Assembly: GCA_029856155.1 (NCBI GenBank)
Contig: JAHQWL010000013.1
Span: 1 to 60,955 of the forward strand
Length of the DNA stretch: 60,955 bases
Origin: Promethearchaeia archaeon
GTDB lineage: Archaea; Asgardarchaeota; Lokiarchaeia; Sigyniarchaeales; SOKP01
Direction of reading: 5' to 3'
Of this stretch, positions 1,687 through 57,825 are shown piece by piece. The notes beneath the pieces are model-generated. The model worked only from the letters and a program-made list of their open reading frames with translations, searched no databases and had not been told where the DNA came from. The translations under genes were made by a program, and so were the position numbers. Positions within the stretch are counted from its first letter, which is position 1, and each line of letters begins with the position of its first letter.

Positions 1687-4554
1687 TTGAAAATAATAAA
1701 TAATGGAATAATTAAGGATTCTTATGACGTGGTGGTTGTAGGTGCTGGTATTGGCGGTATTACTGCTGGAGCGCTACTTGCTAATAAAGGTTTAGACGTC
1801 TTAGTGGTAGAACAACATTATATTCCTGGAGGAGTTTGTTCATCTGTAAAACGTAAGGGATTTGCAATGGATGCTGGGGCAGCAATGTTATTTGGATGGG
1901 GTGAAGGTCCATCTCCACATCGTTTCGTTATGAATGAGATAGAAGAAGAAATTGATATGATCCCACATGATTGCTACTATAGAATGCATTTTGGGGATAC
2001 TTCTGTTACGTTTTGGAAGGATTTCAACCGTTTTTTTAAGGAATTATGTGCTGCATTTCCAGGAAAAGAAGAACAATTAAAAGGATTCTATGATCATACT
2101 CGTAAAATTTACGATGACTTGATGAAATCACCAATGCCGATGTCTCCTGACACAATGCCACTTAAATTGGCATTAAAAATGTTTTTTAGACATCCAATGA
2201 TTACAATGAGATTACGAAAATACATGAATAGCTCTTTGAAAGAAATACTTGATTTATATGTGAAAGACCCAGAAATTGAGGGATTATTTGATTTACTTAT
2301 TGCTACGTGTTATTGCACCACCATTGAGGAAACACCTCAATTATTAGCAGCACCAATTGTTTGGGAAACTTTCTATGGGGGTGCTTGCTATCCAGCAGGA
2401 TCACCACAGATGTTTCCTAACATACTTGAAAAAGGAATGGAAAAAAATGGTGGTCAGATATTATATCGTCATATGGTCGAAGAAATACTCCTTGATAATG
2501 GCAAGGTTTATGGAGTTCAACTCGATGATGGGACAAAAATAAGTGCTAATTTTGTAATTTCTGATGCAACAATATGGAATCTTTACGGGAAACTCATTAA
2601 ACCTAAGCATATTACACCTGAACGATTAAAATGGGCTCAGAGTTTTGTACCTACATATAGTTGTGTGGTATTATTAATGGGTGTAGATGCAGAAGTCTTA
2701 CCTGAAGATACAAATGCTATTGAAGTCCTTATCGGGGATCTAACTGAATTATCTAAAAATAATTACTTCTTATATCTTCCATCTATTGATGATCCGTCCA
2801 TTTGTCCAGAAGGAACTCATTCAATATCGGTGTTATGTTCTACTGGAGATTATGATTGGCCACGACCAGACGATCCTCGATATCAAAGTGAAGAATATAT
2901 AAAAATGAAGGAGAAATTTGCTGATGAAGTGCTTGATGTTATAGAAACCAAATTTCCCGGTATAAAAGATCACATCATAACTTTAGATGTCGCTACACCT
3001 GGAACCACTGAGCGTTTTACTCAAAGAAATTTTGGTAATATTGGAGGTCCAAAACAAATGTTAGGACAACACATATTAAATCGATTAGGTGCTCGTACAG
3101 AATTTAAAAACCTTTACTGTGTTGGAGATTCTACCACTATGGGTGAAGGCGTAGTTTCAGTTACAAGTTCAGCTATTGGTGCTGTTAACATGATACTAAA
3201 AGATTTAAAAATGAAACAATATTTGCCACGAAAGTATTCTAAAGAGTATATTAATCATGTAAAGGGAAAAACAAAAATTCAGATGCCATTGATAAAGGAA
3301 AATTTTACAGAAGCTACAGCTAAACGCGCTTCAATTGAATGTCAATGGTGTGAAGATGCTAAATGCATGAAAAAATGTCCAGCGGGGATAGATGTACTAA
3401 ATTTCATTCGGCGTATTGAAGTAGGAAACTATGAGGGAGCTGTACGACATATGCGTGAAATGAATCCACTAGCAGAAATCTGTGGTCAAGTGTGTCCTGC
3501 AGAAAATCTATGTGAATCAGAATGTTATCACCTTGATTATGCTGATGAGCCTACGCGAATAAAAAAACTTCAAGCATGGGTATGTAAACAAGCGGATACT
3601 AAGGGTTGGGACTTATATGTTTCAAAGAACAATGGCATAAAGATAGCTATAATAGGTGCTGGACCAGCAGGATTATCATGTGCTCACTTTTTAGCACGAT
3701 TGGGTTATAATATTGACATTTTCGAGAAAGAGAATAAAATTGGAGGTGTACCTACATTATACATCCCCTCCTTTAGACTTACTGATGAAGTGTTAAATAG
3801 GGAACTTAAAGGAATTATATCATATCCAAATATCGATATAAAATTTGGAAAAGAACTTGGTAAAAATATAATGATCTCTGATCTTTCAAAGGATTATAGT
3901 GCGGCATTTTTAGCACCAGGATTACATTCAGGTCGAAAATTACAGCTACCCGGAATAGAGAATGTTAATGTTGTTGATGCTTTATCTCTTCTCAAGGAAT
4001 ATAAGCAAAATGGAAAATATGTTATTACTGGGAAAGTATTAATTATTGGAGGTGGGAGTGTGGCTGCTGATGCTGCTAATATAGCATTGAAGTGTGGTGC
4101 TGAGAACGTCACTATGGTTTGTCTTGAATCCGATAACGAGATGCCTTGCTTGAAGAGTGAAAAGGAAGAACTAAAGGAATTTGGTGTTCAAATCCTTAAT
4201 TCCTGGGGTCCCAAAGAGATTTATGGAAATAAACTTGTTCTTGTATATTGTAAATCTGTTTTTGATAGGGAAGGAAAATTCTGTCCTGAATTTGATGATT
4301 CAAAAACCACTGAAATTGAGATCGATACTATTATTATAGCGATCGGACAAGAAATAGAGTCACCCCTCGGAGTATATTTAGAAAAAGAGTTTGGTAAAGG
4401 ACTGATTAAAGTAAACGAAAAAACACAGTTAATTGAAGGTCGATTAAATATATATGCTGGCGGAGATATAGTGCATGGAGCTGGAACGGTAGTTACCTCT
4501 GTAGCAGATGGAAGACGTGCTGCGATAACGATAGATGAACAATTAAAAAAATAA
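1687..4554 (+). CDS. Fusion of a phytoene desaturase/CrtISO/RetSat-like FAD oxidoreductase with a GltD/DPD-like Fe-S flavoprotein
   Basis: N-half has GAGIGG...VVEQHYIPGG and NLYCVGDS. C-half has CQWCEDAKCMKKCP, NPLAEICGQVCP, GAGPAGLS, IIGGGSVAAD and YAGGDIVHG. Confidence 0.8.
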   Translation: MKIINNGIIKDSYDVVVVGAGIGGITAGALLANKGLDVLVVEQHYIPGGVCSSVKRKGFAMDAGAAMLFGWGEGPSPHRFVMNEIEEEIDMIPHDCYYRMHFGDTSVTFWKDFNRFFKELCAAFPGKEEQLKGFYDHTRKIYDDLMKSPMPMSPDTMPLKLALKMFFRHPMITMRLRKYMNSSLKEILDLYVKDPEIEGLFDLLIATCYCTTIEETPQLLAAPIVWETFYGGACYPAGSPQMFPNILEKGMEKNGGQILYRHMVEEILLDNGKVYGVQLDDGTKISANFVISDATIWNLYGKLIKPKHITPERLKWAQSFVPTYSCVVLLMGVDAEVLPEDTNAIEVLIGDLTELSKNNYFLYLPSIDDPSICPEGTHSISVLCSTGDYDWPRPDDPRYQSEEYIKMKEKFADEVLDVIETKFPGIKDHIITLDVATPGTTERFTQRNFGNIGGPKQMLGQHILNRLGARTEFKNLYCVGDSTTMGEGVVSVTSSAIGAVNMILKDLKMKQYLPRKYSKEYINHVKGKTKIQMPLIKENFTEATAKRASIECQWCEDAKCMKKCPAGIDVLNFIRRIEVGNYEGAVRHMREMNPLAEICGQVCPAENLCESECYHLDYADEPTRIKKLQAWVCKQADTKGWDLYVSKNNGIKIAIIGAGPAGLSCAHFLARLGYNIDIFEKENKIGGVPTLYIPSFRLTDEVLNRELKGIISYPNIDIKFGKELGKNIMISDLSKDYSAAFLAPGLHSGRKLQLPGIENVNVVDALSLLKEYKQNGKYVITGKVLIIGGGSVAADAANIALKCGAENVTMVCLESDNEMPCLKSEKEELKEFGVQILNSWGPKEIYGNKLVLVYCKSVFDREGKFCPEFDDSKTTEIEIDTIIIAIGQEIESPLGVYLEKEFGKGLIKVNEKTQLIEGRLNIYAGGDIVHGAGTVVTSVADGRRAAITIDEQLKK

Positions 4555-57073: not shown

Positions 57074-57256
57074 ATAGTTAAAGTCAAAAAATGCTCATTT
57101 TGTGGGTATGATATTGCTATCGGAAGAGGAATTATGTTCGTAAAAAGAGACGGCACAGTTTTAAACTTTTGCACCAATAAATGCAGGAAAGCTATGATTG
57201 ATTACAGAAAAAAAGCGAGAAAAACAAGATGGACCTCCTATTATGGGAAGCAATAA
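57074..57256 (+). CDS. rpl24e: 50S ribosomal protein L24e, ATA start; not in ORF track
   Basis: (M)VKVKKCSFCGYDIAIGRGIMFVKRDGTVLNFCTNKCRKAM...RKTRWT; an in-frame TGA lies at 57065-57067. Confidence 0.93.
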   Translation: MVKVKKCSFCGYDIAIGRGIMFVKRDGTVLNFCTNKCRKAMIDYRKKARKTRWTSYYGKQ

Positions 57257-57303
57257 TTAGATTTATAAAAACTTATTATTTAAAAGATTTGAAAAAAACT
57301 TAA

Positions 57304-57359
57304 TTATTGTAAACGTGGAAATTTAAGTAACTCATCAATTAAGTTCACATGACTTACGC
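57304..57359 (-). repeat. Second, recoded copy of the rpoN 3' exon with its splice-junction core
   Basis: GCGTAAGTCATGTG core is identical to 57496-57509; encodes SHVNLIDELLKFPRLQ*. Confidence 0.92.
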
Positions 57360-57453
57360 GATTTAATTGAATAATTATTTTAATCTCCCGAAAAAGGATT
57401 TACTCCTTAGAATTATAAAGTGATAAATGTGAATTCTCTATTATTAATTGAGA

Positions 57454-57684
57454 TCATTGTAATCTAGGAAATTTGAGCAACTCATCTATTAGATCCACAT
57501 GACTTACGCTTAGAAAGCGTAGAGCTTACTAATTTACAATCATGCGTTTGCAACAGAAACGCTCAATCCCTAATTCCTTAAATGCTTTTTCTGAAGGTTC
57601 TCCTTTTTCTAAGAGCTCTAAATACGGCTTATATACATGGGCAATTAATTTCCCGCAACTAAAACAGCGGATCGGTATAATAAT
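57454..57684 (-). CDS. rpoN: DNA-directed RNA polymerase subunit Rpo10/N, split: exon 1 57684-57534, exon 2 57503-57454
   Basis: The joined product MIIPIRCFSCGK...ERFCCKRMIV|SHVDLIDELLKFPRLQ (66 aa) is a complete RpoN. ATT start follows GGAGGAGA. Confidence 0.92.
57504..57533 (-). other. Candidate 30-nt bulge-helix-bulge intron in rpoN mRNA
   Basis: The insert carries in-frame TAG TAA. Exon helix CGCAUGA/UCAUGUG, central UUGU/GCGU, 3-nt bulges AAA and AAG, intron hairpin UUAG-U-AAGC/GCUU-U-CUAA. Confidence 0.72.
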
Positions 57685-57825
57685 GGCTGATCTCCTCCAT
57701 TCAGTTAAATAATTTTTTATATTAGATGTTTCCATTAATTAAATTTAAATAATCTTAAAAATATATTAAATCTAAAGTACTTAGTGATTCTTTAAAAATA
57801 AGTTTTTCTATTTAGCTTCTTTTAA

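Follow-up and report, generated by a model that had tools for sequence, protein, structure and literature searches.

The window analysed here, a stretch of 60,955 nt from the genome of a Promethearchaeia archaeon (NCBI GenBank assembly GCA_029856155.1, contig JAHQWL010000013.1; genome G000 below), contains the core transcription gene rpoN, which encodes Rpo10 and is followed by two copies of its own 3′ end. The more distal copy (tail B) is very probably the original end of the gene, displaced by a mobile cassette that consists of a bulge-helix-bulge (BHB) mini-intron of 30 or 31 nt at a Val|Ser junction, a substitute gene end (tail A) and a free-standing gene for a double-LAGLIDADG protein. 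We regard tail B as a relic with no present function, and the duplicate is of interest for the light that it throws on intron mobility in Asgard archaea: across sister species the odd repeat becomes a series of states of one mobile element, with the endonuclease gene intact, degraded or gone.

An interrupted rpoN gene with two ends

Exon 1 of rpoN (57534..57735, minus strand) begins with the ATG of its open frame at 57735, its conserved N-terminus starting from ∼57684, and matches Pfam RNA_pol_N with an E value of 5.9e-22 over profile positions 1-49 of 58 only. It ends with ...CCKRMIV and the first base of a Ser codon, and the frame stops after ...CCKRMIVN, where rpoN orthologues carry on as ...RMIV[S/G]HVDLIDELLKFPRLQ. 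Tail A, the cassette-borne exon 2 (57454..57503, minus strand), encodes SHVDLIDELLKFPRLQ, stops at TGA and clusters with the tail A of other carriers; counted as the last 16 codons plus stop (51 nt), it occupies 57454-57504. A preliminary description of this DNA had reported a second copy of the last 16 rpoN codons 150 nt downstream, and its coordinates and counts are correct. Tail B lies at 57304-57354 on the minus strand, offset from tail A by exactly 150 nt, and of the 51 nt compared, 10 are different between the two tails, namely 9 of the 48 coding nt and one in the stop codon (TGA versus TAA), with a single residue change, from Asp to Asn. They share an exact 14-nt core (57496-57509 and 57346-57359) and are separated by a spacer of 94 nt (57360-57453). 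The core has no third site in the 4.1-Mb genome, and a degenerate 38-nt pattern spanning both tails matches twice in the window and in none of 100 shuffles.

The preliminary description also raised the possibility that the duplication is a strain-chimera assembly. This is contradicted by one contig of an independent public run, X2, which spans 57100-57561 with zero mismatches; two overlapping contigs of the public run X1 cover 57225-57702, and either X1 or X2 may be the source run of the metagenome-assembled genome (MAG) itself. The two-tail layout is also present in six other species of the genus and on three metagenome contigs. In these MAGs rpoN is annotated as a truncated protein of 38-68 aa, as EF1A and rpoA′ are likewise in relatives.

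The insert between exon 1 and tail A is a BHB mini-intron of 30 nt (57504..57533, minus strand), recognized by its BHB partition, covariation and minimum free energy (z = −3.5). Its edges are ambiguous within a repeated GTAA, and it contains an in-frame TAG and TAA. The RNA partitions exactly into h (7 bp), H (4), bulge (3) and h′ (9), with two 3-nt bulges on opposite strands. In an alignment of six species, whose six sequences are mutually related, BHB pairing holds in 98% of cells compared with 31-49% when the partners are slid, and three pairs are altered on both sides, including one of the central helix (C-G, U-G, U-A). All six species have U-U as the first pair of this helix, and the motif is hence a relaxed form. 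The insert is 31 nt long in the five other species of the alignment and 30 nt in G000. Removal of the intron by cuts within the bulges would give ...RMIV-SHVDL..., with the sequence and length of the uninterrupted orthologues. Rfam at gathering score has no match at the rpoN locus. A perfect 6-bp hairpin at 57505-57521 would compete with the BHB fold; it is found in G000 only, and the mismatches of the remaining five species in the alignment speak against a conserved splicing switch.

Tail A bears the marks of a translated exon. Among 10 carriers it has accumulated at least 17 substitutions, all of them synonymous (P about 3e-12 if unconstrained), and this strong purifying selection indicates that it is translated, which in turn requires splicing, because the insert carries stops and its 31-nt forms shift the frame. 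Structure, covariation and purifying selection together support, at the level of sequence, expression of rpoN by splicing of exon 1 to tail A; the joining would be carried out by the archaeal tRNA-splicing endonuclease and ligase. A comparison with one metatranscriptome (X13) yielded no sequence on 57100-57800. Tail A of G000 shows 4-7 differences from that of the nine other carriers, and its Arg codon AGA is used in 10/10 carriers' tail A compared with 3/29 native tails. From the synonymous excess between the two copies it had been concluded earlier that both were selected as protein. Past selection on both does stand, but it took place in two lineages and not necessarily on both copies in this genome now; the excess is therefore not proof that both function today.

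Given the shared splice-site sequence, the distal copy might be a live alternative 3′ exon, reached by occasional removal of a 180-nt intron to give an RpoN with Asn for Asp, as the preliminary description had proposed. It had correctly seen that three elements identical in both copies, namely the strand of the central helix, the AAG bulge and the strand of the exon helix, are retained at the distal site and that the intron-side helix cannot form there; tail B is also free of stops and frameshifts. Nevertheless, in a fold of 286 nt the exon-1 strand pairs proximally with a probability of ∼1.0 and distally with a probability of ∼0, the distal pairing can be forced only at a cost of 21 kcal/mol, and the distal core is engaged in a local hairpin. 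A further small hairpin followed by a T5 run (57391-57408) lies in the spacer between the copies. Tail B is truncated in its 5′ part or absent in 10/10 other carriers, and the residue that is Asn in tail B is Asp in 29/29 intron-less members of the genus. We therefore consider a live alternative exon very unlikely.

Tail B as the probable displaced native end, and the cassette of its relatives

The 3′ part of tail B belongs to the lineage of its host. Its last 33 nt, the native gene end (57304..57336, minus strand), differ at a single position from the intron-less genome G101, which together with G080 and G005 is among the nearest relatives of G000 on a ProRS tree, and they are continuous with a block ∼95% identical to G101 that runs through the genes for L24e and S6e. 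A query made up of L24e, the flank and tail B has an identity of 94% with G101 and of 89-90% with G080 and G005. Counted per 50 columns, identity to G101 is 45-50 from mid tail B through L24e and S6e and 39-44 in exon 1; tail A, the intron and exon 1 lie outside the native block, and upstream of rpoN no similarity between G000 and G101 is found. The first 18 nt of tail B, by contrast, differ at seven positions from G101, G080 and G005, whose Ser codon is TCG. The Ser codon AGT is unused in the intron-less members examined of the 15-genome ProRS clade of G000, which have TCN or GGN instead. These 18 nt and the six intron-like bases before them, which make up the distal core and the start of tail B (57337..57359, minus strand), are thus non-native to the G000 lineage, and the step from 7 differences in the first 18 nt to 1 in the last 33 places the boundary between native and foreign sequence inside tail B, at ∼57336/57337. 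The check suggested in the preliminary description, namely which copy matches the orthologues of close relatives, accordingly gives a divided answer, the 3′ part of tail B matching G101 and tail A matching the tail A of other carriers.

Beyond tail B, the native 3′ flank of rpoN (57257..57303, minus strand, with a T7 run at 57292-57298) aligns to G101 and leads to the gene for ribosomal protein L24e (57074..57256, plus strand; Pfam Ribosomal_L24e, E = 4.7e-20), the right-hand anchor of the native block. The distance from tail B to the L24e stop is 47 nt in G000, and 39-58 nt in most intron-less relatives with an adjoining L24e (99 nt in one).

At 57074-57076 the L24e gene reads ATA instead of the ATG of most relatives, and the stretch from the upstream in-frame stop to the conserved MVKVKKC start is free of ATG, GTG and TTG; since the intron-less G101 has the same ATA, it is probably real and not a sequencing error. 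On the other side of rpoN, the segment 57826-60954 is without a counterpart at this position in G101, the break in synteny beginning at the rpoN 5′ end; it encodes a leucine-rich repeat protein and a 723-aa protein with a helix-turn-helix domain and, by eye, a degenerate GIY-YIG-like stretch.

A tandem duplication that arose locally in this lineage and then drifted, without any mobile element, would account for two copies that lie near each other in the same orientation. It would not account for the grouping of tail A with its counterparts in other species and of the 3′ part of tail B with the nearest relative's native tail, for a break in identity to G101 that falls inside tail B, or for other species that share the architecture together with an endonuclease gene, and we give it next to no credence.

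The origin of the foreign block becomes apparent from the relatives. A strict search for the intron pattern in 154 genomes of the order found it in 8 of 54 genomes of the genus (G000, G001, G008, G016, G018, G024, G086 and G097) and, with this strict pattern, in none of the 100 others. Tail A is present in all eight carriers, and in seven of them a remnant of tail B lies beside a convergent L24e gene, spaced as in intron-less relatives; none was detected in G001. In G024, G008 and G086 the tails are ∼1.5 kb apart and enclose one intact gene, antisense to rpoN and co-oriented with L24e. The same between-tails form, with an intact gene for a protein with two LAGLIDADG motifs, is found on a metagenome contig from Loki's Castle (L122), whereas in G001 the gene is broken by frameshifts and stops. 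A second arrangement occurs in G097 and two metagenome contigs, where the endonuclease gene lies just upstream of rpoN in the sense direction and the two tails are close together. An endonuclease open reading frame (ORF) is thus found beside the inserted copy in G024, G008, G086, G001 (degraded), G097 and contigs L120, L122 and L123. G000, G016 and G018 have none at the rpoN locus, their tails being separated by spacers of 94, 13 and ∼70 nt; the spacer of G000 (57360..57453, minus strand) occupies the position of the relatives' endonuclease gene.

The endonuclease proteins comprise 332-488 residues with two LAGLIDADG motifs that end in ...ADG and ...DGDG and keep their acidic residues. The G008 form matches Pfam LAGLIDADG_3 (PF14528; E = 3.3e-5, 24.5 bits against a cutoff of 22.5), Pfam is silent for the 332-aa form of G024, and sequence searches of the PDB with a single protein or a profile gave no match. 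An AlphaFold2 model has a mean predicted local distance difference test score of 77.7, and the top Foldseek matches to it in the PDB, all with a probability of 1.0, are bI3 maturase, I-AniI, I-SceI, PI-SceI and I-DmoI. The motifs and the fold matches agree with a double alpha-beta-beta-alpha-beta-beta-alpha architecture. On the G008 form and the modelled fold, which settle the family, the protein in the relatives is a predicted double-LAGLIDADG homing endonuclease. All six homologues whose genomic context was read sit at the rpoN locus, in sources labelled Promethearchaeota or Lokiarchaeota. The gene is at this locus in 5/8 carriers compared with 1/46 other genomes (G012), a count that comes from related genomes and not from independent samples, as does that given below for EF1A.

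These inserts also bear on the other proposal of the preliminary description, in which an integrative element that targeted the tRNA-like intron junction supplied a replacement gene end and then decayed. That a mobile element brought a new gene end and later decayed is retained here; the machinery is different, since the relatives' inserts hold a LAGLIDADG gene and no integrase. Read as an attachment-site (att) scar left by an integrase-borne element or provirus, the locus does offer two features also shown by integrative elements in tRNA genes, namely a direct repeat whose 14-nt core is exact and a substitute end of the gene. Where the earlier proposal looked for the core beside an integrase or for a large element between the tails, the inserts prove to be of ∼1.5 kb, with the LAGLIDADG gene only and no Pfam integrase domain. 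Among the carriers examined, moreover, the exact core is at both ends in G000 alone; no other keeps it at the distal copy, and it is therefore not a conserved att core. The junction sequence is unmatched in 2.9 million viral contigs, which contain only 24-30% identical relatives of the LAGLIDADG protein. A metagenome scan with the bare 14-mer, a pattern too short for the purpose, gave 119 matches in unrelated samples (gut, soil), none of them in two copies. Taken together, we regard an integrase-derived scar as barely credible.

A closer competitor differs from the displacement of tail B by a cassette only in the order of events. The distal core could be the original 3′ splice site of a larger, endonuclease-bearing BHB intron of the kind known from crenarchaeal rRNA genes, with tail A and the 3′ arm of the present intron arising by a later internal duplication that shortened it. 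Indeed, the last six bases of the intron are preserved in the distal copy, as is the complete 3′ strand of the BHB with its central helix, bulge and exon helix, and in relatives the endonuclease gene lies between the two copies. Against this order, the gene is antisense to rpoN in the between-tails form, the intron-side helix is impossible with the distal copy, and the distal core is kept by none of the other carriers examined. Since 12 of its 14 bases are plain exon sequence in intron-less alleles such as those of G003 and G076, only two extra bases argue for an origin from an intron. We judge the larger intron to be unlikely, though it deserves more weight than the other explanations set against displacement.

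Probable mobility of the cassette and its possible generality

The carriers are scattered over the host tree, which was built from ProRS DNA of 45 genomes. The eight carriers need eight changes on it, seven of which are forced by well-supported branches, and each carrier lies beside genomes without the intron pattern, as in the pairs G024/G079, G016/G014, G018/G085 and G008/G021; rpoN is uninterrupted in G079, G014 and G085 and was not recovered in G021. ProRS and rpoN are on one contig in the carriers G000 and G086 and in the intron-less G009, G006, G023, G003, G004 and G092. In G008 and G086 the intron and tail A are 97.6% identical and ProRS only 75%, so that cassette similarity is uncoupled from host similarity.

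Several observations weigh against such a mobile cassette. The endonuclease genes of G008 and G086 have ∼80% DNA identity, near the divergence of their hosts (75-78%); we therefore claim no recent transfer, and the patchy distribution could partly reflect repeated loss. The host tree is a single marker, and the genomes are MAGs with 3-9% contamination. The 94-nt spacer of G000 holds no endonuclease ORF or recognizable remnant of one, and a BLAST search of it against the cassettes of 10 carriers gave nothing significant beyond the core, so that the loss of the endonuclease gene in G000 is deduced from its relatives. Finally, G012 and contigs L125 and L126 have the endonuclease gene beside an intron-less and unduplicated rpoN, which shows that members of this gene family can do without the intron and without the duplicate.

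The G012 locus (L130) is rearranged, with L24e and rpoN co-oriented, unlike in the rest of the genus; its rpoN has a divergent tail, ITSHVDLIDDLLKFSRLQ (DDLLKFS), followed by the antisense endonuclease gene within a 912-aa open frame. In G008, G003, G011 and G104, intron-bearing or not, ∼2.2 kb lie between the rpoN tail and L24e, and in G008 this segment (L035 15985-18041) encodes two proteins, a membrane protein of 177 aa and another of 512 aa. The rpoN-L24e intergenic site is an insertion hot spot.

Under displacement by a mobile cassette, the history of the locus can be pictured as follows. Judging from LAGLIDADG homing biology, the endonuclease would cut intron-less rpoN alleles near the intron site, and a carrier allele would serve as the template for repair of the break, by which the intron, tail A and the endonuclease gene would be copied in; in G000 the right-hand crossover would have fallen within tail B, at ∼57336/57337. 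The intron, perhaps along with the recoding of tail A, would split the target and so protect carrier alleles. The endonuclease gene, once fixed and useless, would decay (as in G001) and then be deleted (as in G000, G016 and G018). That an element-free allele is cleaved, as predicted, and that the intron protects its carriers, we infer only. A comparison of the closely related G016 (carrier) and G014 (non-carrier) delimits a foreign block that begins ∼30 nt ahead of the intron and ends 13 nt beyond tail A, with native sequence setting in again from the Asp codon, ∼12 nt 3′ of the intron site. As far as sequence can tell, these limits are compatible with an intron that splits the endonuclease target, but they are no proof of it.

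The duplicate itself may have arisen in either of two ways. It could stem from an illegitimate right-hand join when the cassette entered a diverged host, the route suggested for Allomyces atp6; alternatively, a once larger, endonuclease-bearing intron may have been shortened, and the six intron-like bases that precede tail B would then be the trace of an old 3′ splice site. The cassette offers a concrete DNA-level route by which a BHB intron may enter an essential protein-coding gene of an Asgard archaeon and pass between species.

A similar association is found at a second gene. Among 30 genomes examined, an insert of 32 nt separates the Lys and Ser codons of the EF1A P-loop (GHIDHGK|ST) in G005 (L134 ∼1270-1330), G080 (L133 ∼3059-3120) and G001 (L161 ∼1950-2010) and is lacking in the 27 others. 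Judged from coordinates, a paralogous LAGLIDADG gene lies directly upstream, 230-310 nt from the matched part of EF1A, in 3/3 genomes with the insert, and a paralogue lies within 5 kb of the intron-less EF1A in 0/27. G001 is not close to G005 and G080 on the ProRS tree. By eye, the EF1A insert could not be fitted to a canonical BHB register.

Further paralogues were observed elsewhere. In G083 (L136) a 564-aa open frame with a LAGLIDADG paralogue (1165-2859) lies upstream of rpoA′, whose N-terminal region has a 30-nt in-frame insert with a stop at ∼3180-3230 (...TYDEDG / insert / IPIPSGLMD...). The only endonuclease paralogue of G000 itself, 415 aa long and 33% identical, is encoded on contig C52 (L036 1504-2751), 170 nt downstream of an interrupted tRNA-like gene (L036 1213-1335) that by eye resembles tRNA-Leu(UAA) interrupted by ∼30 nt in its D-arm region; no tRNA is called there by ARAGORN, and Rfam has no match at gathering score and recognizes only a tRNA-like 3′ half. 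Throughout the genus, matches to the LAGLIDADG family number as many as 10 in one genome (G024), many copies contain stops, and the position of several matches in open frames of 900-1350 aa suggests inteins or fusions.

From these loci it is conceivable, though we hold the idea only tentatively, that tRNA-type mini-introns in Asgard protein genes spread as passengers or partners of free-standing LAGLIDADG genes, which decay and vanish and sometimes leave a displaced gene end behind. This would be an archaeal form of collaborative homing, with the rpoN of G000 at a late stage and those of G008 and G086 at an early one. Were the link between free-standing endonuclease genes and mini-introns a general one, it would become testable how this lineage came by its intron-rich gene structure.

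Relation to known mobile introns and gene ends

Archaeal rRNA genes have BHB introns that contain internal LAGLIDADG genes (I-DmoI, I-Tsp061I and relatives). The endonuclease fold, the splicing motif and the domain of the host are the same as here, whereas the endonuclease gene is there inside a long stable-RNA intron and here outside an mRNA mini-intron. The textbook archaeal mRNA intron is that of cbf5. In Crenarchaeota the pattern of this pre-mRNA BHB intron has been explained by one gain and several losses (PMC2738675). It is of the same type as the rpoN intron, and the accessible part of that report describes no endonuclease gene, exon duplicate or mobility mechanism (PMC2738675). The cbf5 case also differs from ours in phylum, and the carriers of the rpoN intron are scattered, each beside intron-less relatives.

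Free-standing endonuclease genes that promote the spread of a neighboring intron are known from collaborative homing in phages, where F-CphI acts with the psbA intron of cyanophages (PMC6083498) and T4 mobE with the I-TevIII intron (PMC2790892). As in those systems, the endonuclease gene here adjoins the intron-bearing gene and lies outside the intron, with the co-occurrence at rpoN and EF1A given above (5/8 against 1/46 and 3/3 against 0/27). Unlike the self-splicing group I introns of phages, the introns here are of the protein-spliced BHB type, only 30-32 nt long, and at rpoN come with a duplicated gene end; cleavage at the intron site is what we would predict by analogy.

The closest parallel to the duplicated end itself lies in fungal mitochondria. 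The mobile ORF (mORF) of Allomyces macrogynus atp6 is an endonuclease ORF that comes with a foreign C-terminus of the gene (Paquin, Laforest and Lang 1994, as cited in PMC3630166), and mitochondrial mORFs carrying foreign C-termini are also known from atp6, atp9, cox2 and nad3 of Glomus (PMC3630166). In both settings the order is host gene, inserted C-terminal copy, LAGLIDADG ORF and displaced native C-terminus (PMC3630166). As in the fungal case, the native copy is the one closest to the sister species, here with the exception of the first 18 nt of tail B, while the inserted copy is diverged in nucleotide sequence and encodes a nearly identical protein (PMC3630166). G000 has both the inserted and the displaced gene end and lacks the adjoining endonuclease ORF; because that ORF lies beside the inserted copy only in its relatives, G000 is a decayed derivative of the mORF type. 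The fungal insertions produce an in-frame fusion, whereas here a BHB mini-intron would have to be spliced out, and the endonuclease gene either lies upstream of the host gene or runs antisense to it. In a full-text literature search that took in few subscription journals, we found no such archaeal cassette and no BHB mRNA intron tied to free-standing endonuclease genes. Hence, although its parts have counterparts in fungal mitochondria, phages and archaeal rRNA genes, what is new in the rpoN cassette relative to these known analogues is its setting on an archaeal chromosome, in a core transcription gene, and its combination with a BHB intron in an mRNA.

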